From: a candidate division WWE3 bacterium
Lineage (GTDB): Bacteria; Patescibacteriota; WWE3; UBA101185; UBA10185
Assembly (NCBI GenBank): GCA_052035175.1
Contig: JBPOHV010000001.1
Span: forward strand, 703,771 to 767,770
Direction of reading: 5' to 3'
DNA: 64,000 nt
Of the stretch, positions 40,903-64,000 are shown piece by piece; position 1 is the first letter of the stretch, and every line of letters starts with the position of its first letter. The notes under the pieces were generated by a model. That model had not been told where the DNA came from. It saw only the letters and a list, made by a program, of their open reading frames with translations, and did not search any database. Position numbers and translations under genes: made by a program.

Positions 40903-42514
<1,612 letters not shown>

Positions 42515-45329: not shown

Positions 45330-45352
<23 letters not shown>
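44900..45352 (-). CDS. atpH: ATP synthase delta (OSCP) subunit
   Basis: C-terminal IYGGFKVIFAGRYFDQS. Confidence 0.65.
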
Positions 45353-46879
<1,527 letters not shown>

Positions 46880-46900: not shown

Positions 46901-46929
46901 TTGACCTAAAACAAACCTTACCATACAAT
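46901..46929 (+). promoter_or_regulatory. Sigma70-like promoter (TTGACC, 17-nt spacer, TACAAT) for the giant gene
   Basis: Read directly from the sequence; an AAGGA RBS lies 6 nt before the ATG at 46981. Confidence 0.5.
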
Positions 46930-46980
46930 AAATTAAACTTTACTAAATGTTGTTATTACAATATTTAACAAGGATTAAAA

Positions 46981-49900
46981 ATGCCTATATCTGCCCAAGA
47001 TAAAACATCGAAATACGATTTCACAAATTCATTACATTTAACTGTTTCAGAGGCAGCGAGTTTATTAAAAGTATCCCCTACTACACTGAGAAGATTTGAG
47101 AACGAACACAAAATTTCTTCGACAAGGTTACCAAATGGCTATAGAGTTTTTGACATTAAAGATATAAACAATCTTAAGAATTCTTTGGAAACTCAAAAGT
47201 TAAGTAAAGAAAAAAATAAAGGAAAAAAAGTATTAAAAACTATAAACAGAAACATTGATGCATTAAATAAATACACTGTACAAACACAAACTCAAAAAAA
47301 ACCAATCAATAAGTCTATAAGAAATAAATATCTTTTATCCAACGCAATAGTTTTGGTGATGGGTGTTTATGCAATTTTAACTTTCAGCATTAATAAAAAT
47401 ATACCAACAACTGGATTGACATCCCTCGTTATATCTACAAGCAATAAAGCTTTAAGTACAACAAATGACAACCTTATAACAAACAAAATAACAGATACAC
47501 AAGTAAGTAATGTATTAGCTTTGGGAGACCAAAGACCTGACTATTCTTTTAATACTAGCGTAAATGCCAATTTTGAAAAGCTACTCAATGTTACCGGCAT
47601 ATCCAATTTGAATGGTGGAATAACAACACCGACAATTACTTTTACAGAAACAGGCACAATTAATCAATTGGATGCTATTGATGATACAACTGAGACCACT
47701 TTAGAAAATGCATTAGATATAAATGGTGATGTTGTAGGAACTGGATTAAATAATACACAAATAGCAGACAGTGTCATAGAAGGAACAAATCTTGTAGAAG
47801 ACTTTGAGTATACTGGTAATTTCAATTTTGCAGGTACATGGTTGATCGATGGTAGTGAAGTTACCGCAACAGCTGAGCAAATTAATTTGTTTGCAGATAT
47901 CAGTGCAACATCTGACGAAATTAATTATCTGTCTGGCGCAACTGTTGATAATGGCGGTTTAGTATTTGGTAACGGCTCAAGCTTTGCACAAGATCCGATA
48001 AATCTGTTCTGGGATGATACAAATAACAGACTTGGAATAGGAAATACTACTCCGGCTTATACATTGGATGTTACAGGTGATATTCGTGTAAGTTCAGCGT
48101 CTGACATATATGTAGGTGCAAAAGGTCTGAACGATACTGGTGCTACTGCTGCAGATTCTGGAGCTACATTAGTAGGTGTATTTGATGAATTTAACAATTC
48201 TAACAGTACTACAGTTCAAGCAGTACTAAATGACCTGGATGCTGCAGTTAGTGCTGGTGGATCTGAATGGACGCAAGACACCGGTTTCATTTACCTGACA
48301 AACACTTCTGACGAAGTAGTAATAGGAGGAAATGCATCGCTTTCGAGTAAATTTGCGATAAACGGTGATGCTGATGAAACACAACTCTTAGTACAAGGTC
48401 ATTCTACACAAACAAACAATTTGGCAGTATTTGAAAATTCATTAGGTACTGATGTCTTTACAATAAATAATAGCGGAAATGTAACTTTGTCAGGAACATT
48501 AACTTTAAATAGCGAAACAATATCAGATTTTACAGGTGATGGTTTGTCACTATCTGGCGGTGCTTTGACTATAGATTTAACATCTCCAACCGATGCATTG
48601 TCTTCCACTACATCCAGCGGATCTGGGTTGGAGGTTATCACAACTGGACTTACGCTATTACAAGGGTGCAACAATGGCGAAATATTAAAGTGGAACGAAA
48701 CTAACGATTCTTGGGAATGCGGAACTGATACAGGAGCTTCATTTGCAATTGTAGATGTTCAAAACAATGATGTATCAGTTGGATCAAATGTAGATACAAT
48801 TGATTTTTCTACTGATTTTAGTGTAACCGCATCCCCTTCTAATGAAGCAAACGTTGCAATAGCAGATGATGTTTTGAACTTCACAGAGATTGCAGACGCA
48901 CTTTCACTTGACGCTGCAACAACTATCACAAACGCACTAGCTGGAAACTTAACAATAGATCTAACTTCTACTGGTGATTTTGTAATAGCTGATGGAGGGT
49001 CTGCTGTTTATACATTTACTGATGCAGGCGGTCTTACACAAGCAGGTACAGGACAAAACACGTTTACTGGTAACATCGACGCCACATTAGGAATAGATGT
49101 GACAAATGCCAATCTCACTGTCGGTGGATCAAACTTCAGTGTAGATTTTTCAAACGGAAATACAACAACTGCTGGCACCTTAGCAGTGAATGGTGATTCC
49201 ATTACATCTGATGGAACAACCTTAGCTATTAATGCAGCCGGAAATGTAGACATACAAGATATTTTAAATGTAGATTCTTTGACTACAGATACTGGTGGTA
49301 TCACAATTACTAGCGGACAAGATCTAACTATCGGGGCAATAGGATTGAATGATTTGGGTACAAATAATGCTACATCTGGAGCATCCCTAGTTGGAACATA
49401 CGATGAATTCAATAATTCAAATAGCACTACTGTACAAGATGTTTTGGATGATTTAGACGCAGCAATTGGTGCAGGAGCTTCTAAGTGGACACAAGACACT
49501 GGATTTGCATATTTAACAAATACTACAGACTCTATCACAATTGGTGGAAATACTGAGCTTGGTAAGTTAGCTGTCGACGGTAATGCTGATGAAGTTCAAT
49601 TGCTAATCCAAGGTAATGGCACACAAACAAACAATTTGGCAGTATTTGAGAACTCTGCTGGTGTTGATCAGTTTACTGTAACAAACACAGGAGACTTAAC
49701 TATTGCAGGTGACCTTGCTATATCTGGAGGAAATATAACCACAGCAGTAACGTTTGACTCTACAGCAACATCGACAGGTACTTTAACAGCAAATGGTACG
49801 TTTGATGCGAATGGTGTTGTAACTCTAGGAGACGGAAGCGACAATATAGCAATCGATGGCAATATATGGGACATAACATCAGCAGGTGTAGGAACAGGCT

Positions 49901-52900
49901 TTACTTCTTTTACTATAGACAATGTTATTGTTGATGGCACAACCATTGGACATACTTCAGATACAGACTTGCTCTCTCTTGCAAATGGAGCGCTAACGGT
50001 AAATGGTACTGGTACATTTACCGGTGTATTAGCAACTAATGCAACAACATTAGGTTTGGATGCTGATGCTGACACAGATAATTATTTTACAGTAGGTGCA
50101 AGTGGTACAGCTGGTGATGCTTCTAACGATTTGTTCTGGGGTCAAGATTTGTTGTGCGATGTCAGTGCTACAAATTGCGGTTGGGCTACTGCTGCTAGTG
50201 CATTTAGTTCATGGACAATCGCCGACAATGATGGCAGTTCGTACGCAATAGTCGATTCAAACACAATCAGATTTACTACAAGTGATGGAAATGTCATAAC
50301 TAATTTAACAAATGGCGATGATGCCGATGAGAATTTGGATTTAACTGTAAGGCTACTTGGAGACATAGTAGCTGGTGCGGGTCTAACCGGTGGAGCTGAC
50401 AATATATTAGTTGGTGCAGACGCAGATACCACAATTACAATCGGTGCAGGAAACGGCATCACTGTAAATGCAGATGATGTTGCAGTAAATCAAGACTACG
50501 ATTTTACATTTACAGGGAATAATACATTTACTCCAGCAGGAACTGATGATCTTACAATAAACCTTGATGACGATTCTCTACTTTCTATAAATCAAACTTT
50601 CTCTGGAACAACAACAGCAAATGGTTTAACACAAACAATCACAAACTCATCAACATCAGGTACACAAAATGCATTTTATTTAGATAATGCAGCTTCAACA
50701 GGTGTAACAGATTCACTATTTGTCATAGATAACAGCGATACTGACACTGCAGTGACAAATGCAATTCAATTTGTAGATGCAGGCGGCGGATTCACAAATC
50801 TTTTCAATGTTGCTGGAACATTAATATCACCTGCTGAATTTACAATACTCGATGGCGGAATTAACTTAGCGTCTTCTTCGGAAGTTACAGGTATATTACC
50901 TCTTGCAAATGGCGGAACTGGAGCAAATCTCGTTGATCCAAATGCTGACAGAATATTTTTCTGGGATGATACTGCTGGTGCATCTACATGGTTAGCTGCA
51001 GATGGTACAAGCATTGAGATAGCAGGAACAACACTGCAACATGTCGACACTTCTACACAAGCGAGTGTAAATAACTCAACGACAACTGTGATTCAAGATA
51101 TAACGCTTGATACATATGGGCATCTTACAGGAATTACATCTGTTGATCTTGCTTCAAGTTTTGATAATTATGGTCAGTGGTATTATGCTTTGGACTTTAC
51201 TAGCCCCTTACCTATAACAAGCGGTCAGACTTTGACATATATGTCTGGTAACGATATAGACATAACAAACAGTGGAACCAGGCAGATTACAGTAGCACTT
51301 GAGTCGACACTTGACATAGTTTCAACCATCAATCTAGCAGGAACAGGCACATTAAACGGACTTGATGCTGTCGATGCTACAACAGAAAATACGATAGAGG
51401 GATTAATTTTTGATAACGATGCAGAAAATATTACAGGCGTATGGGAAGTTCAAGACGACACAAACTTTGTATTCGGTAACGATGCCAATGTAAGGTTTGC
51501 ATATAATGAGATTTACGATTTATTCGAGATTAGTACCCCCAGCATTGCGGCACAAAATACAGATTATGCACTTTATACACTTTCAACCGACAATACTAAT
51601 GCCGGAATGACAGCCGATCAAGAAGTATTTGAAATAGGAAAAGGTGGAAGCTTCAACGCTGACATGAACTATGTAGAATTGTTAGCACTAGATGAAGATG
51701 GAGATTTGTCTGTAACTGGCACTGGTACTTTTAATGGTGTATTAGCAACTAATGCAACAACATTAGGATTGGATGCAGATGCTGATACAGATAACTACTT
51801 TACAATTGGTGCAACAGGTACAGCCGGTGATGCATCAAATGACTTATTCTTTGGCCAAGACTTGCTATGCGATGTTTCAGCAACTAACTGCGGTTGGGCA
51901 ACAGCTGCATCTTCATTTACATCATTCACATTAGCAGGAGATGCTGGTGGAGGACAAACTATATCAAGTACTGACACTTTGAGCGTGCTTGGAGGTACAA
52001 ACGGAATAGACACTATAGACTCTGCTACAGATACAGTAACACTCAACCTTGATACTACTGAAATAGGTACTACAACTTTTGGTAGCGGTTCTGCATTTGC
52101 GTGGACATTTAATGCAGGAACAACTGATCCTGTCATAGGCTTTGGCGATGATCAATTAGATTTAGGCTCGGCTACAACTGGACTCAGATTAACTACAGAT
52201 GGCATACTTTCTGATATTGATGATGCAAATGTTTCAATAAATGATGGCTTACAATTTGTAGGCGCACAAACTATATCTACATCTTCTGGAAACTTAACAA
52301 TTGATACTGCTGGTACATTTATCATATCTGACGCTGTAGATTTAAATAATACACTAGACTTAGATATCTCTTCTGCATCAGCATTTACAGTTGGCGATGG
52401 CTCTATAAATACATTTAGTATAGACACAGCAAACGATTTAATCGCTTCAACAGGAAATTATGTAGCTACATTTACATCTCTGGTTACAAACACACTAGCA
52501 AATGGTGCTGGATCAAGCTCAACAAGTCTAACTGTGGACGACTCCACAGGATTTGATGTTGGAAATTATGTGAGAATAGATTCGGCGTCAAACTGTGACT
52601 CAGGCATAACAACTTGTTATTCTAAGATAAGACAAATTGTAGGTAATGTTATAACACTTAGAAATGCACTCACTTGGACAGATAACTCAACAATAACCGA
52701 ATATCATATTCCAGAAATTGGCGGTACAAATACTGCAGAAGCATTAACAGATAGATTTGGTCGCGGTTACTTTATATCTGGAACTGTCGCTGGTAATGCA
52801 TCAACATACTATGACGATAGAAGAATATATACGACAGATACTACGAGTTCTAACTCTCCATCTTTTACGATAAGCACTGGAACAACAACCACATCAGGAA

Positions 52901-55900
52901 ATTCTGGAGATATAACTATAGACACTGGTGTAGCAGCAGGGACTGAAGGACAGATATATCTTGGTAACACAAACGCCAGTGCAATAACTATTGGTCATGC
53001 AGGTGTTACAACAACAATCGGTGGATCGATAATAATTAATAGCCAAGAATTTGCTAATCTTACTGGACAAGGTTTGGCTCTCGATGGCAGCAACGTACTA
53101 AACTTTGATTGCTCAGAAGTAGAAGGAACTGATATCGATTGTTCTGGTGAGAATATAACTTTGGAATCAACTATTGACTCAATTTCTACGTTGAATTTGG
53201 CAGGTACAGGTACTTTGAACGGACTTGATGCTGTCGATGCAACATCAGAAAATACTATTGAAGCATTGATATTCGATAATGACGCTGAAACTATTACAGG
53301 TGTGTGGGAAGTCCAAGACGATGTAAACTTCGCATTTGGAACTGCTGCAAATATCAATTTTGTATACAATCAAACAGACGATTTATTTAATATAAATGCA
53401 ACATCAACTGCATCACAAAACACTGACTACGGGCTTTATACACTTTCAACCGACAATGCTAATGCCGGAATGACAGCCGATCAAGAAGTATTTGAAATAG
53501 GAAAAGGTGGAAACGACGACTCTGACACAAACTATATAGAATTGTTAGCACTAGATGAAGATGGAGATTTGTCGGTAACTGGCACTGGTACATTTACCGG
53601 ATCACTTGCAACCAACGCAACTGCTATCGGGCTTAACAATGATGCAGACACTGACAACGTACTATCATTTGGTGCAGGGTCTGCTGGTGCCGCATCGGGT
53701 AATTTATACTGGGGAAATGTTTTGGTATGCGATGCCTCACAAGCCAATTGCGGTTGGGTAACTTCTAGCGGTTCTGGTGCTTCTAAATGGACTGATGGTG
53801 GAGATCATATTTACCCAACTGGCGGAGAATTTTTGGGTGATGACACATCAAATGGAGCAAATAAACTAGCTGGCGCATATTTCTTGGATGGCGCTCCCCT
53901 AGTATTGGGAACAACAAATGATATTCAATTTGCTTATGATGAAACAACTGACGATCAATTAGAAATAAGCGATGGTACAAATGATTTCTTAACTATCAAA
54001 GATAATGGCACTACAGCAACATTTACTTTTGACAACATCGTACAAATTGGATCAGATGGTCAAGACGGACAATTTGTTTTATACAATGAATTAGGTGCTA
54101 CTGATTACACAAACACTTTTGCTTTGAGTGGAACACAATCTCAAGATATAACGTATACATTACCAGCAAATGACGGCGGAGCTAGCCAAGTCTTATCTAC
54201 AAACGGGTCAGGAGTTTTGACATGGATTGACGTATCTGGTGGTGCTGGCGGATATACTGGTTGGGCGATTGCAGATGATGACAATGATACATATACAATT
54301 TCTTCTGGTGATCAAATAAAGCTTTATTCGTCTAGCAATGTTATTACAACAAACTTGATAAATGGGGACGATACTCTCGATGAAATAGATTTGGATATAG
54401 CAGATGATTCTTTGAATTTCACAGAATTTGCAGATTCTCTATCTGTCGATGCAACAACTGATATAAATCTTGGTACATCTAATTTAACTGTTGATTTAGA
54501 CTCCACTGGGATATTTGACATAAGAGATGGTGCAACAACTTACTGGAGTTTTGACGATGACTCAACTGTAGATGTTACCTTCCCTGCTGCAGGATCTTTA
54601 ACAATAGACTCAGCTACTACAGATTCTACTTTAACAACAGGTATATTTGATCTTAATGTCGATACCATAACTACAGGAAATATTGGTTTTAATATCGATC
54701 ACATTATTAGAGACTCAGCAGGCATCACTGCTTATGGTCAAAGAATTAATACAACTATAGATACTGACGCTGCTGAAAGCTCAACCGGATATGGACTTTA
54801 CATTAGTGGAACAAACAATGATGCCTCCTCTACCCTGACTGGTCTTTATGTAGATGCAGGAACTGGTGCTGGTACTGAATATGCTGCTGCGTTTATGAAT
54901 GGGAATGTGGGTATTGGAATAGCCACACCAGAATCAAAACTCCATATTAACAACGCTGATACTGCAGCAAATGGCCTTAGACTATCTTATAGTGAAGCTA
55001 GTTACGACGACCAATACTCTCTTGATTTATACTCAGCAGGTGGATCAGGTGCATTTATAGATGCTGCAACAACAACTAATGGATTAACAATAAGAACTTC
55101 ATCTAATGCAACTAGAACAAATTTAGCCGCCAGAATGGTAATCCTAGGAGGCGCTAATGCAGGTAACGTAGGTTTATCTACTACTGCACCTGATGCAAGA
55201 CTTGAAATTAACCATGCTACCGGAGATAACTTAAGACTTACTTATAATGACGCTGATGGCACAGCATCTAACTACACCGACTTCTCGCTTGCTTCAGATG
55301 GAGATTTGACAATTGATTCAGCTGGTGGCGCTATCAACTTAGCATCGGGCGATGATTTAAATATCACAGCATCAACCGACTTGATATTTGGAACAACAAC
55401 ATCACTCGGAGAATCAACAGGAGCTACAGACTCTGGTGCATATCTGGTGGGAGTTTTTGATGAATTCAATAGCTCAAACGGAACTAATGTACAAGATGTA
55501 CTCGATGACCTCGATGCAGCTGTAGGTGCTGGTGCTTCTAAGTGGACACAAGATACAGGATTTATTTATTTAACTGGTTCAACAGATAGCGTAACAATTG
55601 GCGGAACTACAGAACTTGGAAAACTCGCTGTAGATGGCGATGCTGATCAAATACAATTATTAATCCAAGGTAATGCTACACAAACATCTAACTTAGCTGT
55701 ATTTGAAAATTCTGCAGGAGCTGATCAACTTGTTGTAACAAACACAGGAGACTTAACTATTGCAGGAGATGCAACAATTACTGGTAATTTATTAACTTTT
55801 GGTAATGGAGAAACAATTGATAACAATGCTGACGGAACAATCGCACTAAATCCAACAGTATTAACACTAACAGGAACAACAACACTTAATGGTACATCTT

Positions 55901-58900
55901 TAACAGCAATCAATGGTGGTGCAACAGCAATAGACTTTACAGAATTTGATGTAGCAGCTGCAACTGGATCTGTGACAATAAATGACGGTGGAGATCTAGG
56001 AAGCCTTACAGTAGAAGGAACTGTACTGGATATAAACTCACTTGATTTTGTTGGAACAGGTGCAATTAATACTACAGACTGGGATATCTCATCAACAGGA
56101 GATTTAACTGGAATTGGCGGAATTACAGCAGATGGCGCAATCAGCTTCACCCCATCATCTACAAACGACATAACATTTGGCGTAGATACAGATTCATTGT
56201 TTACCTTAGATTCAAGCGTTGCTAATGCAGATAACTTTACCTTCTCACCAAATAATGCTGGAACGGGTGCTACGTTTACAGGAACTCTGACTTCAGCAAA
56301 CTTAACTGCTGATAGAACATGGACTTTGAAAGATGCTGATGGAACAATCGCCTTCTTAACTGATATCCCAACATCTGATAATTATCAATATTGGACATTA
56401 GATGGTGATGATGCTGACACCGAGCAAATTGGCAGTACTAATACCCTACTCGTAGCCGGTGGTACAAATGGAATAGATACAGATGTTTCTGCAACTGACA
56501 CAATTACTTTAAATCTTGATACTACTGAAATAGGTACAACAACTTTTGGTTCAGGATCAGGAATAACCTGGACATTTGATGCCTCAGCTGGAACAGACAC
56601 AGCAGTTGCTTTTGGAGATAATTTGCAAACATTAACTACAGCAACGTTAACTCTTTCTGGAACAACAACATTGAACGGCACTTCCTTAACTGCAATAAAC
56701 GGTGGTGCAACTGCAATAGACTTTACTGAATTTGATGTAGCAGCTGCAACTGGATCTGTGACAATAAATGACGGTGGCGATTTGGGAAGTCTTACTGTAG
56801 AAGGCACTGCATTAGATATAAATTCTCTTGATTTTGCAGGTGTTGGTTCAATAACTACAGGTGGATCTACAGATTTAACACTAAACCCATCTGGGGGCAA
56901 TGTAATAGTAACTGATGGCGATGTTTTGGATGTATACGGAACAACAATTGGTTTGAACAACGATGCAGATACAGATAATGTATTTGGACTCTCAGCATCA
57001 GCAGGATCAGCAGGGTCTGATATCTACTGGGGTGATGACTTACTTTGCGATGTTAGCGAGGCAAATTGCGGATGGACTACTGCAGCTTCATCATTCACAG
57101 GATTTAGTATTAGCGATGGATCAACTACAGAAGGTATAGCTTCTGCTGACACAATCACATTCGCAGATTCTTCTACTATTAATGCTGCAGTATCTGCAAC
57201 TGATACTGTGACAATGAATGTCATAGCAAACTCACTAGACTTTGCACACCTTGAAGATACTTTAGACCTCGATGCAACTACTGAGATTAATCTCGGGGCA
57301 AATAATTTAGTAATAGATCTTGATTCGACTGGTGATTTCGTAATTAATGATGGCGGAATAACATTCGCAACCTTTATGGATAATGGCCGTTTGGGTTTGG
57401 GAACAAGTCAAGACTTACAACTCTATCATGATGGTTCAGATGGTTATATTTCAGGTTCAACCGGAGGTATAATCGTCAACTCTTCTGCAGGCAATGTAAT
57501 CCTTGGTAGCAACAGTGGAAGCTGGGTTGGAGTTGGGGATGTATCACCAGATGCACAATTTGATGTCGACTATATATCAACAAACACTACCGCAGGAACA
57601 GAGTTAGGCAGTTACTTTACAATGGCAGATACAGGTATAGTTACGACAGGTTCTGATATTACAATCGGTATAGAAAATGATGTTACAAGAACTGGCGCAA
57701 CCGGTGGAGCTTTGGTTACATATGGAATACAAAACAATATAACAGCTGATAATGCTGGGAGTGGCTCATCTACAGCATACGCATATTATGCATCATTTGG
57801 TGGACTTGCAGATTTCTCATATGCATTTTTTGCAGACGATGGAGATATAGAACTTCAAGAAGATGGTACAGGTGTAGTTGGTGCTGGTGGCAATTTACTA
57901 CTTGGTGCTAGTGAAGATTTCAAACTATATCACAATGGCAGTGATTCATTTATGCTCGGTACAGAAAATGACCTTTATATCGGAGCTGATTCAGGAACTG
58001 CAAATTCTCAGATTAAGTTTGGAAACGAAGGAGCATCAACTGTATATGGATACTTTATAACTGGATCGTCAAATACAGGAGACTTTGTAGTTGACACAAA
58101 TACACTCTATCTAGATGCATCTGCCGATAGCTTGGGAATAGGAACTACTGCCCCCGACGCAAGACTAGAAATCAACCACGCAACTGGAGATAACTTAAGA
58201 CTTACTTACAACGATGCAGATGGCAGTGCAACTAGCTATACAGACTTCTCTCTCGCTTCTGATGGTGACCTAACAATAGACAGTGCTGGAAATAACATTG
58301 CATTTGGTGCTGCAGATATAATTACTGCATTAGCAAATATAAATGCCGATGGTGGATTGGATATTGATGATGCATTCGTAATTGCTGATGGTGGCGTACT
58401 AACAACTTCTCAAACTGCAAATTTTGACGGTGCTGCTGATTTTGATGGCAATGTACTTATCTCTGATACCGACATAGCATTTGATGGTGCTTCTACAACT
58501 TTTACCACAACAGGGGCATTTACATTAACACCAGGTGGTGCAGTACTTCTTGGCGATGGTGGAGATACATTGCAAATCAACACGTCAGATTGGGACATAT
58601 CAACTACTGGTGACTTAACAGGAATTGGCGGAATAACTGCGGATGGCGCAATCAGCTTTACCCCATCATCTACAAACGATATAACATTTAATGTAGACAC
58701 AGATTCATTGTTCACACTTGATTCATCAGTGACAAATGGCGACAACTTGGTATTCTCTCCAAATAATGCTGGAACTGGGTCAACATTTACCGGAACTCTG
58801 ACTTCTGCAAACTTAACTGCTGACAGAACATGGACATTGCAAGATGGCGATGGAACTATTGCCTTCTTAACTGATATTCCAACATCTGATAACTATCAAT

Positions 58901-61900
58901 ATTGGACATTAGATGGCGACGACGCTGACACCGAACAAATTGGTAGCACCAATACCCTACTCGTAGCCGGTGGTACAAATGGAATAGATACAGATGTTTC
59001 TGCAACTGACACAATTACTTTAAATCTTGATACTACTGAAATAGGTACAACAACTTTTGGTTCAGGTTCATCTATTGCTTGGACATTTAATGCTGGCACA
59101 ACTGATCCTGTTTTAACATTTGGTGATAACAGCTTAACGATAGGTTCAGCTGCAACTGTTACTGCTACTGATGTAACAACATTTAATTGTACTGATTGTT
59201 TGAATTTTGATGATTTATCTGATGCATTAACACTAGATGCAGCAACAACAATTACAAATTCAACAGCTGGTGATTTATCTTTTGATTTAACATCAACTGG
59301 TGTACTCAATATAAAAGATAGCACTGTCACCTACTGGTCATTTGACGACGACTCAACTGTTGATGTCACCTTCCCAGCAGCCGGTCAACTTGCAATAGAT
59401 GCAGCAACAACTGATTCTACTTTAACTACAGGCATATTTGATCTTAATGTAGACACAGTAACTTCAGGAAATATCGGACTTAATATCGATCATATAATAA
59501 GAGACTCCACAGGCATTACTGCATATGGACAAAGAATTAATACAACTATAGATACGGACGCTGCAGAAAGTTCAACTGGATATGGTTTGTACATAAACGG
59601 AACTAATAACGATGCCTCCTCTACTTTAACAGGCTTGTATGTAGATGCAGGAACTGGTGCTGGTACTGAATACGCTGCTGCGTTTATGAATGGGAATGTG
59701 GGTATTGGAACGACTACACCCGCAACTAAACTAAGTATAGATTCAAATTCAAACACACAAAATCTTCGTCTATATGGCGCCACTGAAGCATCCCAAATTG
59801 CCGATATATACATAGGCACTCAGGGAAATTTAGTCTTAAGTACCATTGCAGGCTCTGATTCTGCCGGCTACCTTGATCTCCAATCTGAAAGCAACAACTA
59901 TGGCCTTATCCTCCGCGAATCTGACGGTACTGGCGGTTCGGCATTTGCTAATTTCTTTGTTGTTGATCATGCTACTGACCCTGACTATTTAAGCATTGTA
60001 CTCAACACTACCACTAACACCAATGCTCTAAACGTCACTGTCGGCAACAATGTCGGTATAGGTACCGCAAATCCCGCCGGGCCACTGGAAGTAGATACGA
60101 GTACTACTTCTGGGGTGGCAGTTACCATCGACCAGGACGACGTCGACCAAACTGCACTCGATTTTGATATCAATAATACCGCTGCAGATATCTTAAATAT
60201 TGACTGGGGTGGAGCTACTTCTCAGACAGCAGCTTTGACTGGTATTGATCTTGATTTTACAAATTTAACAAGTGTAGCAGGTTCCACCACCTATGGCCTC
60301 CATATAAATGATCTTTCTGCTCAAACAACCTCCACTGAATACGCTATTTACCAAGAAGGAACCAATTGGGACTATGGACTCTATATAGAAGATGCAGCCT
60401 TATTTAATACAAGTTTGGTAGTGAATGGTACAACAATAGGCTTGGATTATGATGCTAGCGCTAATAATGTTGTTTCTCTCGGTACTGGGCCTGGTCAGGC
60501 TTCGGGAGACCTTTACTGGGGCGATGACCTAGTCTGTGATGTTTCTGAAGCCAACTGCGGTTGGGCAACAGCTGCCTCTTTATTCACAGGCTTTAGTATT
60601 AGTGATGGATCTACAACTGAAGGTATAGCTTCTGCTGACACCATCACATTCGCAGATTCATCTACTATTAATGCTGCAGTATCTGCAACCGATACTGTGA
60701 CAATGAATGTCATTGCAAACTCTTTAGACTTTGCACACCTTGAAGATACTTTAGATCTTGATGCGACAACTGAGATCAATTTTGGTGCATCCAGTCTTTC
60801 TTATGATCTAAACTCAACAGGAACATTCGATATTTTAGACAACAATCAAAAATTCTGGAGTTTTGATGATGACTCAACTGTAGATGTCACCTTCCCTGCT
60901 GCAGGTGAACTTAATATTGATTCCGCAACCACAGATTCAACTGTAACGACAGGTGTACTTGATCTTAATGTCGATACAGTAACTACAGGAAATATTGGTT
61001 TGAATATTGACCATATAATTAGAGACTCTGCTGGGATCACAGCTTATGGTCAAAGAATTAATACAACTATAGATACCGATGCAGCACAATCCTCTACTGG
61101 ATATGGACTTTACATTAGTGGAACAAACAATGATGCCACTTCTACGCTAACTGGTTTGTATGTTGATGCAGGAACAGGTGCAGGTACTGAATATGCAGCT
61201 GCGTTTATGAATGGAAATGTGGGTATCGGCACTGCTACACCACTTTCAACAGCAAGATTAGATGTTATGGGTGGAGATTTCAGAGTACAAGCAGCTGAAG
61301 GTACAAATAGATTATTACTTACTGGTACAGGTGATACGAGCGGTGCAGAATTGTACATATATAACAGTACCGGAGCACTAACAAGTAGAGTTAGCGGTGA
61401 TGGTGGAGGCATAACATACTTTAACAATGGCCTTGGTGTAGGTATAGGAACCACAGCTCCAGATGCAAAACTTGAAATCAACCATGCAACTGGTGATAAC
61501 TTAAGACTTACTTACAACGATGCTGATGGTAGTGCAACTAGCTATACAGACTTCTCTCTTGCATCAGACGGTGACCTAACAATAGACAGTGCTGGAAATA
61601 ACATTGCATTTGGCGCTGCAGATATAATCACTGCATTCGCAAATATAAATGCCGATGGTGGATTAGATATTGATGATGCATTCGTGATTGCTGATGGTGG
61701 CGTACTAACAACATCTCAAACTGCAAACTTCGATGGTGCTGCTGATTTTGATGGCAATGTATTAATTTCAGATACTGACATAGCATTTGATGGTGCTTCT
61801 ACTACTTTCACAACCACAGGTGCATTTACCCTTACCCCAGGTGGTGCGGTACTTCTTGGCGATGGTGGAGATACATTGCAAATCAACACATCCGATTGGG

Positions 61901-64000
61901 ACATATCAACTACGGGTGACTTAACAGGAATAGGCGCAATAACTGCAAATGGTACTTATACAACATCAACCGGAACATCAACAGCAATAGATTTAACAAG
62001 ATCATCTGCTGGACAATGGATGGGATTCAATGATGGTACTGATGTATGGGGTCTATACAATACAGCAGGATCTCCCGAAGGTGTACTTGCTGCAAACACC
62101 GGAGCCTTGGCAATGGATACCACAAACGGCACACTTTATGTGAAAACTGATGACACAGATAATACAAGCTGGGTCAATTTAGCTACAGGATTATCAAGCC
62201 CATGGACTGATGGTACAGGTATATCCTACCTTACAGATACAGCCGAAGATGTGGTTGTTGGCAGTGATGATGCTGATCTGGTAGCTCCTCTTTCTTTTGA
62301 TACATCTGCAAACTTACTCAGACTGGGAGATGGCGTTAGTGATACCAACGATCCAAGCATAGCTTTTTATGCTTCAGATGCCACAAATAGCGGTACATTG
62401 TCATTTACAGACAGTGATGCTTTCTTATTTACCGGCGCCGACATCAATTTGGCAGCAGGAGAGGTTTATCAAATTGGCGGAACTCAAGTTATAAACTTAA
62501 GCAGCACTGCTACTGGTTCAATATTCTTTGGAAATGGTGGTACAAGTGTAGGCGCAAATGATGATTACAATACCGGCGTTGGCATAGGAACATTGTCAGG
62601 ATTAAATAACTCTACTGGCTTAAGAAATACAGGACTTGGTTACAACGCACTTAATATAACCACATTTGGTGATGATAATGTTGCAATCGGATATGCAGTT
62701 TTAGACCATAACACCTATGGATCAGCAAATATAGGTATAGGTTATAACGCACTTACAACTAATACAGACGGAAACGACAATGTAGCCATAGGCTATGCTG
62801 CTTTAGATGCCCTAGGAGCAGGACAATCAGGTAACATCGCAATAGGTAGAGATGCTTTGGGTACTACATCGTTAATAAGTGGATGGAATGTGGCAATTGG
62901 ATACGGCGCATTGGATTCTCATACAAATGGTATTAGCGCGAGTGGTTACAACACTGCAGTAGGTACTGGTGCTGGTGATAAAGTCACTGGCGGCGTTGAT
63001 AACACCTTAATTGGAAGCTATGCAGGCGCAGGCGTTACAACCGGCGGCCAAAACGTCTTTATTGGTCGTACTGCTGGAGGATACTCAGCCTCAGGTGAGA
63101 TCACTGGAAGTGCCAATATTGGAATCGGCTATGAGGTAGGTCGAACAGGATTTGCATTTAGCGGATCTAACAACCTGATGATTGGAAACAGTACCGGTGG
63201 AACAATTACTTCTGGATTTGACAATATATTACTAGGGTATGGTCCAGGAGGTAACATAACAACAGGTGCTTGGAATATTATTCTGGGATCAGGCGCAGGC
63301 GGCGCAATTACTTCGGCAAGTGATGGCAATATCATAATTGGACGTGATGCGGGCGATAGTTTAACATCTGATGATGATTTCAGTGTCATGATCGGTTATC
63401 AAGCAGGTGGACAAGAAACAACAGGTGGAAAACTTTATATAGAAAATACTAATTCCACTACCCCACTCATCTATGGTGACTTTACAACAGATGAATTAGT
63501 GTTCAACGGCTTACCAGCAGGAACCGTAACAGCATCTGAGACTGTAACTATAGCACCAGTCTTTGGTGTCAACGCTGCGGACCAAGTTCTTATGGGTCTT
63601 AATATTGCAGCTAATACAAACTCCAACACTGATAGCGGCGATACACTACGCGGTTTAAATATAGCTAACATCACTGGTACCGCAGCATCAGAAACTGCAT
63701 TTACGATCGGTACTGGATGGGATACAGATTTAGTATTTAGCGACACATCAGCAGTATTATCTTTTGGTAACACTGGAACTCTTACCTTTAATGATGGTAC
63801 TAATGCACTAATGAGCTTAACAGATGATGGTGCAACGGCGACACTTGCTGTAACCGGCGATCTAGATATTTCTTCGGCAGGTAGCAGCGCAGTAAACCTA
63901 ACCAGAACATCTGCAGGACAGTGGATGAACTTCAGTGACGGCACTGACATTTGGGGTCTTTATAACACCGCCGGGTCACCAGAAGGTGTACTTGCTGCTA
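46981..64000 (+). CDS. Giant surface protein (at least 5673 aa, 3' end beyond the window): N-terminal MerR/excisionase-type HTH, one TM helix, then a huge Thr/Gly/Asp/Asn-rich repeat domain
   Basis: The frame (positions congruent to 1 mod 3) is open where checked by hand: at 46981-48130, 48601, 50101, 55141, 58141, 62041 and 63961. N-terminus LTVSEAASLLKVSPTTLRRFENEHKISSTRLPNGYRVFDIKDINNL. TM helix LLSNAIVLVMGVYAILTFSI. Recurring modules include NLFWDDTNNRLGIGNTTPAYTLDVTGDIRV, DLLCDVSATNCGWATAAS and LEINHATGDNLRLTYNDADG. Confidence 0.8.
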   Translation, partial: MPISAQDKTSKYDFTNSLHLTVSEAASLLKVSPTTLRRFENEHKISSTRLPNGYRVFDIKDINNLKNSLETQKLSKEKNKGKKVLKTINRNIDALNKYTVQTQTQKKPINKSIRNKYLLSNAIVLVMGVYAILTFSINKNIPTTGLTSLVISTSNKALSTTNDNLITNKITDTQVSNVLALGDQRPDYSFNTSVNANFEKLLNVTGISNLNGGITTPTITFTETGTINQLDAIDDTTETTLENALDINGDVVGTGLNNTQIADSVIEGTNLVEDFEYTGNFNFAGTWLIDGSEVTATAEQINLFADISATSDEINYLSGATVDNGGLVFGNGSSFAQDPINLFWDDTNNRLGIGNTTPAYTLDVTGDIRVSSASDIYVGAKGLNDTGATAADSGATLVGVFDEFNNSNSTTVQAVLNDLDAAVSAGGSEWTQDTGFIYLTNTSDEVVIGGNASLSSKFAINGDADETQLLVQGHSTQTNNLAVFENSLGTDVFTINNSGNVTLSGTLTLNSETISDFTGDGLSLSGGALTIDLTSPTDALSSTTSSGSGLEVITTGLTLLQGCNNGEILKWNETNDSWECGTDTGASFAIVDVQNNDVSVGSNVDTIDFSTDFSVTASPSNEANVAIADDVLNFTEIADALSLDAATTITNALAGNLTIDLTSTGDFVIADGGSAVYTFTDAGGLTQAGTGQNTFTGNIDATLGIDVTNANLTVGGSNFSVDFSNGNTTTAGTLAVNGDSITSDGTTLAINAAGNVDIQDILNVDSLTTDTGGITITSGQDLTIGAIGLNDLGTNNATSGASLVGTYDEFNNSNSTTVQDVLDDLDAAIGAGASKWTQDTGFAYLTNTTDSITIGGNTELGKLAVDGNADEVQLLIQGNGTQTNNLAVFENSAGVDQFTVTNTGDLTIAGDLAISGGNITTAVTFDSTATSTGTLTANGTFDANGVVTLGDGSDNIAIDGNIWDITSAGVGTGFTSFTIDNVIVDGTTIGHTSDTDLLSLANGALTVNGTGTFTGVLATNATTLGLDADADTDNYFTVGASGTAGDASNDLFWGQDLLCDVSATNCGWATAASAFSSWTIADNDGSSYAIVDSNTIRFTTSDGNVITNLTNGDDADENLDLTVRLLGDIVAGAGLTGGADNILVGADADTTITIGAGNGITVNADDVAVNQDYDFTFTGNNTFTPAGTDDLTINLDDDSLLSINQTFSGTTTANGLTQTITNSSTSGTQNAFYLDNAASTGVTDSLFVIDNSDTDTAVTNAIQFVDAGGGFTNLFNVAGTLISPAEFTILDGGINLASSSEVTGILPLANGGTGANLVDPNADRIFFWDDTAGASTWLAADGTSIEIAGTTLQHVDTSTQASVNNSTTTVIQDITLDTYGHLTGITSVDLASSFDNYGQWYYALDFTSPLPITSGQTLTYMSGNDIDITNSGTRQITVALESTLDIVSTINLAGTGTLNGLDAVDATTENTIEGLIFDNDAENITGVWEVQDDTNFVFGNDANVRFAYNEIYDLFEISTPSIAAQNTDYALYTLSTDNTNAGMTADQEVFEIGKGGSFNADMNYVELLALDEDGDLSVTGTGTFNGVLATNATTLGLDADADTDNYFTIGATGTAGDASNDLFFGQDLLCDVSATNCGWATAASSFTSFTLAGDAGGGQTISSTDTLSVLGGTNGIDTIDSATDTVTLNLDTTEIGTTTFGSGSAFAWTFNAGTTDPVIGFGDDQLDLGSATTGLRLTTDGILSDIDDANVSINDGLQFVGAQTISTSSGNLTIDTAGTFIISDAVDLNNTLDLDISSASAFTVGDGSINTFSIDTANDLIASTGNYVATFTSLVTNTLANGAGSSSTSLTVDDSTGFDVGNYVRIDSASNCDSGITTCYSKIRQIVGNVITLRNALTWTDNSTITEYHIPEIGGTNTAEALTDRFGRGYFISGTVAGNASTYYDDRRIYTTDTTSSNSPSFTISTGTTTTSGNSGDITIDTGVAAGTEGQIYLGNTNASAITIGHAGVTTTIGGSIIINSQEFANLTGQGLALDGSNVLNFDCSEVEGTDIDCSGENITLESTIDSISTLNLAGTGTLNGLDAVDATSENTIEALIFDNDAETITGVWEVQDDVNFAFGTAANINFVYNQTDDLFNINATSTASQNTDYGLYTLSTDNANAGMTADQEVFEIGKGGNDDSDTNYIELLALDEDGDLSVTGTGTFTGSLATNATAIGLNNDADTDNVLSFGAGSAGAASGNLYWGNVLVCDASQANCGWVTSSGSGASKWTDGGDHIYPTGGEFLGDDTSNGANKLAGAYFLDGAPLVLGTTNDIQFAYDETTDDQLEISDGTNDFLTIKDNGTTATFTFDNIVQIGSDGQDGQFVLYNELGATDYTNTFALSGTQSQDITYTLPANDGGASQVLSTNGSGVLTWIDVSGGAGGYTGWAIADDDNDTYTISSGDQIKLYSSSNVITTNLINGDDTLDEIDLDIADDSLNFTEFADSLSVDATTDINLGTSNLTVDLDSTGIFDIRDGATTYWSFDDDSTVDVTFPAAGSLTIDSATTDSTLTTGIFDLNVDTITTGNIGFNIDHIIRDSAGITAYGQRINTTIDTDAAESSTGYGLYISGTNNDASSTLTGLYVDAGTGAGTEYAAAFMNGNVGIGIATPESKLHINNADTAANGLRLSYSEASYDDQYSLDLYSAGGSGAFIDAATTTNGLTIRTSSNATRTNLAARMVILGGANAGNVGLSTTAPDARLEINHATGDNLRLTYNDADGTASNYTDFSLASDGDLTIDSAGGAINLASGDDLNITASTDLIFGTTTSLGESTGATDSGAYLVGVFDEFNSSNGTNVQDVLDDLDAAVGAGASKWTQDTGFIYLTGSTDSVTIGGTTELGKLAVDGDADQIQLLIQGNATQTSNLAVFENSAGADQLVVTNTGDLTIAGDATITGNLLTFGNGETIDNNADGTIALNPTVLTLTGTTTLNGTSLTAINGGATAIDFTEFDVAAATGSVTINDGGDLGSLTVEGTVLDINSLDFVGTGAINTTDWDISSTGDLTGIGGITADGAISFTPSSTNDITFGVDTDSLFTLDSSVANADNFTFSPNNAGTGATFTGTLTSANLTADRTWTLKDADGTIAFLTDIPTSDNYQYWTLDGDDADTEQIGSTNTLLVAGGTNGIDTDVSATDTITLNLDTTEIGTTTFGSGSGITWTFDASAGTDTAVAFGDNLQTLTTATLTLSGTTTLNGTSLTAINGGATAIDFTEFDVAAATGSVTINDGGDLGSLTVEGTALDINSLDFAGVGSITTGGSTDLTLNPSGGNVIVTDGDVLDVYGTTIGLNNDADTDNVFGLSASAGSAGSDIYWGDDLLCDVSEANCGWTTAASSFTGFSISDGSTTEGIASADTITFADSSTINAAVSATDTVTMNVIANSLDFAHLEDTLDLDATTEINLGANNLVIDLDSTGDFVINDGGITFATFMDNGRLGLGTSQDLQLYHDGSDGYISGSTGGIIVNSSAGNVILGSNSGSWVGVGDVSPDAQFDVDYISTNTTAGTELGSYFTMADTGIVTTGSDITIGIENDVTRTGATGGALVTYGIQNNITADNAGSGSSTAYAYYASFGGLADFSYAFFADDGDIELQEDGTGVVGAGGNLLLGASEDFKLYHNGSDSFMLGTENDLYIGADSGTANSQIKFGNEGASTVYGYFITGSSNTGDFVVDTNTLYLDASADSLGIGTTAPDARLEINHATGDNLRLTYNDADGSATSYTDFSLASDGDLTIDSAGNNIAFGAADIITALANINADGGLDIDDAFVIADGGVLTTSQTANFDGAADFDGNVLISDTDIAFDGASTTFTTTGAFTLTPGGAVLLGDGGDTLQINTSDWDISTTGDLTGIGGITADGAISFTPSSTNDITFNVDTDSLFTLDSSVTNGDNLVFSPNNAGTGSTFTGTLTSANLTADRTWTLQDGDGTIAFLTDIPTSDNYQYWTLDGDDADTEQIGSTNTLLVAGGTNGIDTDVSATDTITLNLDTTEIGTTTFGSGSSIAWTFNAGTTDPVLTFGDNSLTIGSAATVTATDVTTFNCTDCLNFDDLSDALTLDAATTITNSTAGDLSFDLTSTGVLNIKDSTVTYWSFDDDSTVDVTFPAAGQLAIDAATTDSTLTTGIFDLNVDTVTSGNIGLNIDHIIRDSTGITAYGQRINTTIDTDAAESSTGYGLYINGTNNDASSTLTGLYVDAGTGAGTEYAAAFMNGNVGIGTTTPATKLSIDSNSNTQNLRLYGATEASQIADIYIGTQGNLVLSTIAGSDSAGYLDLQSESNNYGLILRESDGTGGSAFANFFVVDHATDPDYLSIVLNTTTNTNALNVTVGNNVGIGTANPAGPLEVDTSTTSGVAVTIDQDDVDQTALDFDINNTAADILNIDWGGATSQTAALTGIDLDFTNLTSVAGSTTYGLHINDLSAQTTSTEYAIYQEGTNWDYGLYIEDAALFNTSLVVNGTTIGLDYDASANNVVSLGTGPGQASGDLYWGDDLVCDVSEANCGWATAASLFTGFSISDGSTTEGIASADTITFADSSTINAAVSATDTVTMNVIANSLDFAHLEDTLDLDATTEINFGASSLSYDLNSTGTFDILDNNQKFWSFDDDSTVDVTFPAAGELNIDSATTDSTVTTGVLDLNVDTVTTGNIGLNIDHIIRDSAGITAYGQRINTTIDTDAAQSSTGYGLYISGTNNDATSTLTGLYVDAGTGAGTEYAAAFMNGNVGIGTATPLSTARLDVMGGDFRVQAAEGTNRLLLTGTGDTSGAELYIYNSTGALTSRVSGDGGGITYFNNGLGVGIGTTAPDAKLEINHATGDNLRLTYNDADGSATSYTDFSLASDGDLTIDSAGNNIAFGAADIITAFANINADGGLDIDDAFVIADGGVLTTSQTANFDGAADFDGNVLISDTDIAFDGASTTFTTTGAFTLTPGGAVLLGDGGDTLQINTSDWDISTTGDLTGIGAITANGTYTTSTGTSTAIDLTRSSAGQWMGFNDGTDVWGLYNTAGSPEGVLAANTGALAMDTTNGTLYVKTDDTDNTSWVNLATGLSSPWTDGTGISYLTDTAEDVVVGSDDADLVAPLSFDTSANLLRLGDGVSDTNDPSIAFYASDATNSGTLSFTDSDAFLFTGADINLAAGEVYQIGGTQVINLSSTATGSIFFGNGGTSVGANDDYNTGVGIGTLSGLNNSTGLRNTGLGYNALNITTFGDDNVAIGYAVLDHNTYGSANIGIGYNALTTNTDGNDNVAIGYAALDALGAGQSGNIAIGRDALGTTSLISGWNVAIGYGALDSHTNGISASGYNTAVGTGAGDKVTGGVDNTLIGSYAGAGVTTGGQNVFIGRTAGGYSASGEITGSANIGIGYEVGRTGFAFSGSNNLMIGNSTGGTITSGFDNILLGYGPGGNITTGAWNIILGSGAGGAITSASDGNIIIGRDAGDSLTSDDDFSVMIGYQAGGQETTGGKLYIENTNSTTPLIYGDFTTDELVFNGLPAGTVTASETVTIAPVFGVNAADQVLMGLNIAANTNSNTDSGDTLRGLNIANITGTAASETAFTIGTGWDTDLVFSDTSAVLSFGNTGTLTFNDGTNALMSLTDDGATATLAVTGDLDISSAGSSAVNLTRTSAGQWMNFSDGTDIWGLYNTAGSPEGVLAA
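58150..59080 (+). repeat. Long intragenic repeat block (about 0.9 kb) whose parts recur at about 61450-61930 and 56040-56540
   Basis: Stretches more than 90% identical by eye, e.g. GAAATCAACCA(C/T)GCAACTGG(A/T)GATAACTTAAGACTTACTTACAACGATGC... Confidence 0.6.

Follow-up and report, generated by a model that had tools for sequence, protein, structure and literature searches.

The 64,000-nucleotide stretch of DNA considered here, termed the window, is part of the chromosome of a candidate division WWE3 bacterium (GenBank assembly GCA_052035175.1, contig JBPOHV010000001.1, positions 703,771 to 767,770). Its distal end is occupied by the 5′ part of a giant open reading frame (ORF). The translated product begins with a small DNA-binding head that resembles BldC and other MerR-type proteins, passes through a Lys-rich linker and a single predicted transmembrane helix, and continues as a very long acidic body made of repeated modules. 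This report concerns the giant gene, the family of genes to which it belongs and the likelihood that the head regulates its own gene. The features of the gene that lie in the window are as follows.

46981 to 64000, + strand: 5′ part of the giant ORF, which stays open for 5,673 codons and continues past the window end.
47038 to 47178, + strand: BldC-like/MerR-type winged helix-turn-helix (HTH), amino acids 20-66, predicted to be cytoplasmic (Pfam, profile, AlphaFold2 and Foldseek).
47179 to 47328, + strand: Lys-rich linker, amino acids 67-116, predicted to be cytoplasmic; length and sequence vary across the family.
47329 to 47403, + strand: sole transmembrane helix (signal-anchor), amino acids ~117-141 (hydropathy scan; AlphaFold2 helix at 112-138).
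47512 to 47574, + strand: post-membrane motif VLA...F.(V/T)(N/S)V...F, amino acids 178-198; V178 and L179 are invariant and A180 nearly so (alignment).
50155 to 50178, + strand: two-Cys module CDVSATNCGW, first copy (sequence motif).
51868-51891, 53728-53751, 57046-57069 and 60535-60558, + strand: further copies of the two-Cys module (sequence motif).
62758 to 63111, + strand: N.(A/G)IGY.AL-type repeats, amino acids ~5260-5377 (match to phrog_4636, 'tail spike protein', E = 3.7e-12).

In the translated window DNA the ORF starts at the ATG at 46981, with AAGGA just 5′ of it, and runs off the window end; an earlier note on this DNA, made from the letters alone, had described an open frame of at least 17 kb from the same position, and this is borne out. 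The conserved C-terminal block of the family (NGRVPVKV... / ...WWIVD) is absent from the part of the ORF that lies in the window, and the gene is therefore longer than 5,673 codons. Nucleotide repeats within the ORF reach 97% identity over ~516 nt, and there is some risk that collapse of repeats during assembly has altered the length of the ORF, though not its frame.

The head is the best defined part of the protein. Amino acids 20-66 score above the Pfam cut-offs for MerR (PF00376, 31.4 bits; cut-off 28.2) and MerR_1 (PF13411, 29.1 bits; cut-off 21.6), and just below that for HTH_17 (26.5 against 27). An AlphaFold2 model of residues 1-247 has a predicted local distance difference test score (pLDDT) of 92-96 over residues 20-70 and displays a beta-alpha-alpha-beta-beta-alpha fold. 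When a 16-sequence profile of the head is compared with the PDB, the top match is BldC (6AMK/6AMA, E = 4.6e-13), followed by BrlR, CueR, RacA (E = 3.1e-7), CarH, GlnR/TnrA and SoxR, with TipA and MtaN also among the matches. A Foldseek search with the head model likewise places BldC chains first (target-normalised TM-score 0.75-0.82, root mean square deviation 1.3-1.5 Å), then RacA (TM-score 0.66) and the Xis protein of a mycobacteriophage. The MerR/excisionase-type HTH proposed in the earlier note thus stands, as does a MerR-type helix by profile; the HTH_17 pattern that it had named falls short of its own cut-off.

The coiled-coil dimerisation helix and effector domain of classical MerR proteins are not found, and the HTH is followed by the linker and the transmembrane helix. 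Because of this, the head is described as a BldC-like minimal MerR-type winged HTH: it belongs to the MerR HTH superfamily, yet is no classical MerR regulator. The residues with which BldC contacts DNA (Lys26, Arg30, Trp31, His46, Arg47 and Arg48) are all kept in most relatives of the giant protein (S.KTLRRWE ... GGHRRY), whose GGHRRY wing is identical to that of BldC. In BldC numbering, the window head has Lys26 changed to Thr, Trp31 to Phe, His46 to Tyr and Arg48 to Val.

Among the nearest non-membrane relatives of the head are ~200-amino-acid proteins with a resolvase domain (PF00239), which are IS607-type serine recombinases (P0071-P0078, P0082 and P0085; P and L numbers denote proteins and loci of the comparison set). 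There are hints in the sequences of a possible mobile-element or excisionase origin of the head.

The linker forms a long helix (residues 59-100) of falling confidence in the AlphaFold2 model; it is not conserved in the alignment and is Pro-rich in some relatives. A hydropathy scan of the whole 5,673-amino-acid product detects exactly one hydrophobic segment. The net charge is +14 before this segment (+6 to +19 in 12 relatives) and −637 after it, and by the positive-inside rule the protein fits an N-in/C-out topology, with a cytoplasmic HTH and an external body. The Lys-rich linker, single transmembrane helix and giant extracytoplasmic body of the earlier description are in keeping with hydropathy, charge and the modelled helix at 112-138, and one transmembrane segment is present at an equivalent relative position in ~57 related loci. 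At 35-60 residues past the helix, all relatives carry V-L-A followed by F.VNV...F. Judged by its letters, this motif looks like an AXA-type processing motif or a fibre nucleation point.

Thr accounts for 15% of the body, Gly for 12%, Asp for 11% and Ala for 10%; Lys and Arg are nearly absent, and the body is very acidic. Self-comparison reveals no simple tandem array; instead, the body is a mosaic of dispersed modules of 60-200 amino acids, each of which is reused two to five times at 40-97% identity. The 18 Cys residues of the window product form nine pairs, the two members of each 3-17 residues apart, which are putative disulfide-type pairs. The two-Cys motif C[DA][VA]S..NCGW begins at amino acids 1059, 1630, 2250, 3356 and 4519, and the five copies agree with the five or more that had been claimed; the module is also found in relatives, e.g. 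P0009 and the product of L046. The motif (L/V)G(I/L)(G/S)xxxP, of the VGIGTTxP type, is present in eight copies.

Some modules had been taken in the earlier note as a possible sign of a phage tail-fibre-like fold, and this is supported weakly and in part, chiefly by one region. The repeats at amino acids ~5260-5377 are the sole part of the body with a match in PHROGs; they have no Pfam match, and Hep_Hag/YadA domains are not found by Pfam despite the N.AIGY.AL-like repeats. For the body as a whole, Pfam gives nothing significant (K1-lyase_Rider, E = 0.016, is below the cut-off) and NCBIfam has no matching family. An AlphaFold2 model of amino acids 336-690, built on a 23-sequence alignment, is of moderate quality (pLDDT 70). 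Compared with the viral library BFVD it yields 12 matches at E ≤ 1e-3 (from 2e-5) to tail-fibre, S74-chaperone and YadA-like proteins, at TM-scores of 0.24 or less. Against the PDB no match is significant (best E = 0.26), the list consisting mostly of phage tail fibres and Bdellovibrio prey-recognition fibres. Peptidase_S74 (PF13884) and other tail-fibre Pfam families are absent from the window part, which stops short of the C-terminus, and among the body homologues PF13884 is found solely in the weakest (P0034-P0036). A tail-fibre-like body is plausible but weakly supported. The anchor is an N-terminal inner-membrane helix, unlike the C-terminal outer-membrane anchor of YadA-like autotransporters.

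The giant gene is one of many. A word-indexed search with the N-terminal 220 amino acids gives no matches, and the family was reached through the body instead: residues 301-1300 retrieve 36 proteins, 13 of which have the same three HTH Pfam families. The named sources of these homologues are Patescibacteria, Amesbacteria, Woesebacteria and Microgenomates, and family fragments are publicly labelled "MerR family DNA-binding transcriptional regulator, partial" or "hypothetical protein". A common plan is displayed by all 12 HTH homologues that were inspected, consisting of the head LTIxEAAKxLxVSxKTLRRWE...RTxGGHRRY (~20-60), a basic linker, a transmembrane-like segment, VLA...F.VNV and the acidic body. 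The transmembrane-like segment is 50-150 residues after the head motif and exceeds the hydropathy threshold in 11 of the 12, with P0009 just under.

A profile scan of species-representative genomes with the N-terminal module gives 80 loci, and the comparison set has 82 loci in all; the scan pattern (...TLRRWE) excludes heads with TLRRFE, as in the window. About 57 of the 82 loci encode an HTH, one transmembrane segment and an acidic body rich in T, G, D, S, N and A (TGDSNA). In 14 of these ~57 the ORF is still open at the end of the fetched flank, at 3,370 codons or more, and the complete genes encode 1,083-3,365 amino acids. Complete relatives end in a conserved block of ~330 amino acids. An exhaustive HMMER search of 1.84 billion representatives finds 170 cluster representatives with E ≤ 1e-30. 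Of the 150 of these that score best, 19 are longer than 3,000 amino acids and carry the module at their own N-terminus, the largest having 7,954, 6,179, 6,172, 5,623 and 5,587 amino acids. It had been suggested that the same HTH-membrane N-terminus be sought on other giant genes, and it is found at ~57 of 82 loci and on these 19 proteins. Because the fusion of HTH and fibre recurs across independent loci and large proteins, an artefact in which a frameshift or mis-assembly has joined an HTH gene and a fibre gene is ruled out.

Frameshifts often break up the giant gene in long-read-type assemblies, leaving overlapping ORFs on the same strand with tails that look out of frame (L001, 10001-24371; L002, 10001-23675); the giant of L001 appears as successive overlapping ORFs of 1,456, 1,199 and 6,632 amino acids. 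For this reason, database entries of 1,200-1,700 amino acids are often fragments of larger genes. The record titles of the loci include Woese-, Ames-, Levy-, Shapiro- and Chisholmbacteria, WWE3 and Saccharibacteria, and most are titled Patescibacteria. A metagenome scan for nearer relatives, with the window protein and P0067 as queries, yielded two loci, one of which, L083, is an ordinary high-GC MerR regulator. The best explanation of these findings is a widespread and previously undescribed family of giant surface fibres in Patescibacteria-type bacteria, ranging from ~1,000 to at least 7,954 amino acids. Full-text searches of the literature brought up no description of a giant HTH-headed fibre family.

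The position of the gene is also conserved. Upstream of it in the window, and on the opposite strand, are the following.

46037 to 46828, − strand: divergent partner gene of 263 amino acids, with a signal peptide, an ectodomain of ~150 amino acids and a C-terminal hairpin of two transmembrane helices.
41120 to 46088, − strand: F-type ATP synthase genes b-like, delta, alpha, gamma and beta (Pfam; b-like by a weak NCBIfam match).

In 52 of the 82 loci the HTH-giant gene has an orthologue of the partner gene (30-44% identity) upstream of it in divergent orientation, and in 44 an orthologue of ATP synthase alpha is found beyond the partner gene. Since the alpha subunits of the relatives are just ~38-47% identical to that of the window, the layout of partner, giant and ATP synthase has survived deep divergence. 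The partner ectodomain is homologous to the first part of the ~330-amino-acid C-terminal block of the complete giants (E 2e-5 to 7e-9); neither has a Pfam match above the cut-off, and a faint K1-lyase_C match and PHROG 'head scaffolding' matches are seen. When the partner hairpin is compared with the PDB, seven of nine matches are ATP synthase c subunits (best E = 0.0026), and an identical AIGRNPE loop is found in 9ITJ. The hairpin is without the ion-binding Glu of c subunits and has Val or Phe there. The gene atpE normally precedes atpF. The partner gene occupies the atpE position: it heads the ATP synthase operon and overlaps the start of the b-like gene, whose product has 252 amino acids, by 52 nt. 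No canonical ATP synthase a or c subunit gene is recognised in the 64-kb window, and no clear epsilon gene follows beta.

The same locus, with partner gene, ATP synthase synteny and HTH-giant, is also seen in metagenome-assembled genomes from co-assemblies that are titled 'uncultured Gammaproteobacteria' or 'Pseudomonadales' (L004, L005, L012, L020, L023, L024, L033-L040 and others); the records so titled include chromosomes of 0.81 and 1.61 Mb. These titles are doubtful and may be wrong.

MerR-type genes are typically divergent from their targets. For this reason, and because the recognition residues of the head are almost invariant, the 250-nt regions upstream of 49 syntenic relatives were compared by a blind ranking of 7-mers, with the other 752 kb of these loci as background. 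TTGGACA/TGTCCAA ranks first and is present in 40 of the 49 upstream regions (3.3 expected); TTAGACA is present in 19 (1.1 expected). Motif density in the upstream regions is 25-fold that in the remaining 752 kb. Counted from the first base of a TTGACA −35 box, the first half-site begins 33-34 nt downstream in 23 loci and so falls on the predicted transcription start. Inverted pairs of half-sites 17-21 nt apart (mode 20) are found in 17 loci; there are direct repeats too, and some direct repeats or lone half-sites are upstream of the −35 box. Outside the upstream zones, the 752 kb contain 12 further site pairs, of which 10 are in the same divergent intergenic region, nearer to the start of the partner gene. 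Giants at non-syntenic loci whose head has Lys at position 26 (Lys-type) also carry a TTGGACA site. Although the motif is just one base longer than TTGACA, a generic promoter element is ruled out, as a separate TTGACA −35 box is found upstream and few pairs occur elsewhere. The gene order is the divergent one of MerR systems; the classical MerR dyad, placed in a −35/−10 spacer of 19-20 bp, is not found, as the site of the relatives is at +1 and the spacer in the window is 17 nt.

BldC was crystallised with the site CAATTCGGACAATTCGGACA; its GGHRRY wing is in the AT-rich minor groove, Arg30 reads a C-G pair and Lys26 contacts guanines (PMC5859096). The family motif (A/T)(A/T)TTGGACA, which was found de novo, has the layout of the BldC site AATTCGGACA. 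Moreover, the motif tracks the residue at position 26. A site within 250 nt is present at 44 of 46 syntenic loci of Lys-type, as against one of six with a Thr-type head (VSPTTLRR.E), and at none of nine further Thr-type HTH-transmembrane genes elsewhere. By its alpha subunit, the Lys-type locus L041 is as near to the Thr-type loci L039, L069 and L064 (77-78% identity) as the non-sister pairs of these three are to one another (76-77%). L041 keeps the TTGGACA site, whereas L039, L069 and L064 have TT[GA]AGCA. The elements read TTGGACAAA in L041, TTGAGCAAAC or TTAAGCAAAC in the Thr-type loci and TTGTACAAAC in L086, and the difference falls on the GG.

Heads of this general kind are found on other proteins as well. 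A second family, of ~340 amino acids (P0043-P0065; L063, 2743-3798), combines a tandem pair of HTH_17/MerR heads with a Pro-rich linker, one transmembrane segment and an ectodomain of ~150 amino acids; the MerR-type HTH with a single transmembrane segment is therefore a reusable module and not specific to the giants. On the 506-kb contig of P0001, a second string of MerR-headed genes (L001, 1-6605, − strand; 426, 1,092 and at least 652 amino acids) is a few kb from the giant and on the opposite strand. Its heads are of another type (VSIDTLRRWD, ISASTLRRYG), and there is no TTGGACA upstream. Unicellular cyanobacteria (Cyanothece, Crocosphaera; L011, L013, L016 and L018) encode proteins of ~205 amino acids with a Lys-type head and one transmembrane segment, some as tandem pairs; these have no fibre and no upstream enrichment of TTGGACA.

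In the window itself, the intergenic region between the giant gene and the partner gene displays the following.

46901 to 46929, + strand: promoter-like TTGACC-17-TACAAT for the giant gene, with 10 of 12 consensus matches.
46829-46835, 46865-46871 and 46965-46971 (+ strand) and 46950-46956 (− strand): four candidate half-sites [AT]TAACAA, a pattern chosen post hoc.

The closest N-terminal relative, P0067 (locus L085), has TTGACA-17-TACAAT at the equivalent place. As the window head is a Lys-to-Thr variant, its operator must differ from TTGGACA. In an unbiased count, TAACAA is the most repeated 6-mer of the 152-nt intergenic region, and the post-hoc pattern [AT]TAACAA has four copies there against a shuffle mean of 0.29. 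The last two half-sites form an inverted pair, TTGTTAT-N8-TTAACAA (46950-46971), just before the start codon. Footprints within the subgroup of the window were compared with L085 and L086. In L085, TTAGCAAAT-N14-ATTTGCCAA is found downstream of TTGACA-17-TACAAT, and the elements of the window and of L085 share an (A/G)CAA core with the Lys-type site.

The reading preferred here, to which a probability of about 0.6 is given, is that the protein is a membrane-anchored giant fibre whose BldC-like head regulates its own gene through sites at the promoter. The cytoplasmic minimal MerR-type head would be tethered to the membrane by the basic linker and the single transmembrane helix, and would bind short repeats at its own promoter and at that of the divergent 263-amino-acid gene. 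In Lys-type members the site would be (A/T)(A/T)TTGGACA, inverted or direct, and would overlap the point at which transcription is predicted to start. Transcription of this very costly gene might then be under feedback from the membrane-anchored fibre, through its amount or its state. Since the site overlies the transcription start, repression is the mode of action that is suggested. The family head is the likely binder of the TTGGACA repeats at its own promoter, because the layout of the BldC site is shared and the motif tracks the Lys/Thr state. We infer that the head, and not another protein, binds the motif, and also that the fibre mediates attachment to host cells.

Several points weigh against this reading. 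The fibre nature of the body rests on composition, weak fold matches and a single PHROG match. The window head scores 23.7 bits against the NCBIfam model of BldC (NF033787, HTH_BldC), far under the 77-bit cut-off, and keeps just Arg30 and Arg47 (SPTTLRRFE ... NGYRVF), so that four of the DNA-contact residues of BldC are changed. There is no TTGGACA in the 152-nt intergenic region of the window, and the four [AT]TAACAA copies are a post-hoc candidate for an operator in a spacer of 20% GC. For the relatives, the Fisher test on the Lys-type and Thr-type syntenic loci (p = 4.7e-5) overstates independence, since the loci are phylogenetically related. The search for sites covered ~20 kb per genome, and a wider regulon is possible. 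Another DNA-binding protein, e.g. a free BldC-like one, could recognise TTGGACA. Half-sites are separated by spacers of anything between 9 and 27 nt, and such variable spacing is unusual for a rigid dimer. Finally, the inverted repeat is within the first ~27 transcribed nucleotides and might hence form a 5′ RNA stem-loop.

Of the other explanations, the one that fares best invokes proteolysis, and it is judged unlikely. The fibre would report host contact, tension, damage or export, and cleavage would free the HTH head as a soluble regulator: a first cut at the transmembrane helix or beyond it, possibly at VLA, would be made by signal peptidase or by a site-1 protease and followed by a site-2 cut of the RseP type, in the manner of Notch, RsiV or a signal-peptide remnant. 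The same operator fits this explanation, which differs just in how and when the head acts. The window encodes the following proteases.

18103 to 19245: RseP-like Peptidase_M50 with PDZ (E = 3.6e-52).
38403 to 39014: short Peptidase_M50 (Pfam).
5791 to 7017, − strand: CtpB-like S41 protease carrying PDZ and CtpB_N domains; the giant gene is 40 kb away.

CtpB-type proteases make site-1-type cuts in Bacillus signalling, RseP degrades signal-peptide remnants, and the transmembrane regulator CadC is reportedly activated by cleavage. The V-L-A that is invariant past the helix in all relatives might provide a cleavage site, but is too distant from the membrane for canonical signal peptidase I. The earlier note had listed two site-2 protease genes, and both do encode Peptidase_M50; the link to the giant gene that it offered as speculation is rejected by synteny. 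An M50 homologue is found within 10 kb at three of the 82 related loci, none of which is a syntenic giant locus, so that no protease adjacency is conserved, and RseP is a near-universal housekeeping gene. No link of the CtpB-like protease to the giant gene was found. Nor is a sensor domain recognised in the extracytoplasmic part of at least 5,500 amino acids with Pfam, NCBIfam or PHROG.

It is less probable still that the head has a structural role. The head, translated first, would bind its own promoter in cis and anchor the locus at the membrane or the Sec translocon, and the transcript of at least 17 kb would then be translated and exported co-transcriptionally, with a function like that of RacA and not a regulatory one. 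RacA, a MerR-type winged HTH that anchors the chromosome at the cell pole, is indeed among the best matches of the head, the gene carries the site at its own 5′ end, and in every member the head is at the extreme N-terminus, ahead of the signal-anchor. Such a tether would not have to lie right at the transcription start, a position in which RNA polymerase would be blocked, and the second cluster of sites at the divergent partner promoter fits regulation better.

Least probable of all is that the inverted repeat is a 5′-terminal stem-loop that stabilises a very long mRNA or controls its translation, with the HTH head in an unrelated role (another target, protein-protein contacts or a bulky cytoplasmic anchor): the repeat does begin at the predicted +1, the transcript 5′ end, a loop of 9-27 nt is tolerable for a hairpin and four loci are changed on both arms (TTAGACA...TGTCTAA). 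Against this, arm sequence is conserved across loci with alpha subunits ~38-47% identical to that of the window, whereas a stem with a structural role alone would be expected to drift, and A-C mismatches are present in three pairs. There are also direct repeats and lone half-sites, some of them on the upstream side of the −35 box, and the site both resembles the BldC DNA site and tracks the Lys/Thr state of the head. A count of co-variation between the arms (GC 15, GT 3, AC 3, AT 4; p = 0.066) does not discriminate.

A broader and rather improbable extension of self-regulation by the head joins the whole neighbourhood. Fibre, head, partner and ATP synthase operon might form one functional unit across much of Patescibacteria, in which the head reports the export, loss or host contact of each fibre stoichiometrically to the chromosome and tunes both the fibre and the partner/energy operon. 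The head would act at the membrane, or after release of a stub of HTH and signal-anchor by signal peptidase and RseP. If true, this would represent a self-counting or contact-sensing organelle of an ultra-small episymbiont, in which a BldC head and a phage-like fibre together provide a bacterial counterpart to logic of the Notch/MYRF type.

Compared with known systems, the head is closest to BldC of Streptomyces (6AMK/6AMA), which is also a minimal MerR-type winged HTH without coiled-coil dimerisation helix or effector domain, shares the GGHRRY wing and the K..RW recognition-helix residues with most family members, and has direct-repeat sites, as also occur here (PMC5859096). BldC differs in that it is a free cytoplasmic protein of 68 residues with a developmental regulon, whereas the family head is fused to a transmembrane helix and thousands of further residues (at least 5,500 in the window). 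The sites of the family, in contrast to those of BldC, are often inverted repeats and, within the ~20 kb searched per genome, are seen just at the divergent promoter region of the gene itself.

The giant protein falls within the widespread class of transmembrane transcription regulators, as these are defined in a survey (a DNA-binding domain and at least one transmembrane segment in one polypeptide), where 50,302 proteins with more than 100 types of DNA-binding domain are counted (PMC10269533). The main text of the survey has no mention of Patescibacteria, and no giant protein or HTH-fibre architecture was noted in it (PMC10269533). The ToxR/CadC likeness drawn in the earlier note holds at the level of this broad class. 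ToxR, TcpP and CadC also have an N-terminal cytoplasmic DNA-binding domain, a single transmembrane segment and an extracytoplasmic C-terminal part, and must also reach the chromosome from the membrane. They differ in their OmpR-type winged HTH, a periplasmic sensor of ~100-250 amino acids and the activation of other genes; the family has a BldC/MerR-like head with no match to Trans_reg_C (OmpR/PhoB-type), no recognised sensor, a fibre of 1,000 to ~8,000 amino acids or more and, as predicted target, its own promoter, the evidence pointing to this and the neighbouring one and away from a regulon like that of ToxR.

RacA of Bacillus subtilis (5I41/5I44) is similar in that a MerR-type winged HTH links specific chromosomal sites to a membrane-associated structure. 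It has neither a transmembrane helix nor an extracellular part. Unlike the family, RacA is a soluble protein with a coiled coil and polar attachment through DivIVA, and its sites are GC-rich and located around the origin region. Phage tail fibres and spikes and the Bdellovibrio fibres Bd2439 and Bd2133 (8OL4/8OND) are likewise long, repetitive, beta-rich extended chains, to which the matches of the window are weak (PDB E = 0.26; TM-score ≤ 0.24); these have no cytoplasmic DNA-binding head and no N-terminal signal-anchor. The giants of Omnitrophota and others also have many thousands of residues that are mostly extracellular, an N-terminal membrane or secretion signal and an origin in ultra-small, probably host-dependent bacteria, but they start with signal peptides and C39/S8 peptidase N-termini and are of another lineage and with another body; the preprint that describes them mentions no MerR, HTH or DNA-binding heads (bioRxiv 10.1101/2023.11.21.568195).

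The link of the fibre to a c-subunit-like partner and to ATP synthase represents an additional lead. A related co-localisation appears in a 2026 preprint, where a 'tail fibre-like protein' is found beside ATP synthase genes in the neighbourhood of the pam pilus in bacteria belonging to the candidate phyla radiation (CPR), in Microgenomatia and Saccharimonadia (bioRxiv 10.64898/2026.03.03.709456). That fibre can be compared by description, without accession, size, domain or HTH; lineages and ATP synthase co-localisation are the same, and the neighbourhood is probably the one described here. No recognisable pilus genes or pam-type operon are present in the window or directly downstream of complete giants, whose downstream neighbours vary.

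The rest of the window is core chromosome of low GC content (~36%). It encodes aminoacyl-tRNA synthetases, a release factor (RF), RecR, DnaX, Pth, YbeY, RseP, ribosome recycling factor (RRF), EF-Ts, S2, TopA, PBP2, MreBC, Def/Fmt, four tRNAs and NusG-L11-L1 besides the F-type ATP synthase operon. ORFs of 269, 323 and 648 amino acids (7014-8795, − strand; 11117-13063, + strand) match no Pfam family at E ≤ 0.01. The sole mobile-element signature seen in the window is as follows.

28667 to 29272, + strand: IS200-like Y1 transposase gene, between the mreB cluster and def/fmt.

A large part of bacterial diversity belongs to the Patescibacteria (CPR), which live on host cells and in which regulators that can be recognised, and surface structures that have been characterised, are very few. 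The genes of this family are among the largest in Patescibacteria and keep a fixed position by the ATP synthase operon in dozens of species. What is new here is a transmembrane regulator with a BldC-type head, unprecedented in its size and architecture, together with a predicted operator for which the correspondence of residue to base, Lys26 to GG, is testable. We know of no earlier case of a structural surface fibre that directly controls its own gene from the membrane. If true, the giant fibre would be the first such case, and would extend both the BldC family and the class of transmembrane regulators to an extreme architecture. It would also offer a way to study how ultra-small cells keep the cost of such a protein, which takes up a large share of their translation capacity, within bounds.

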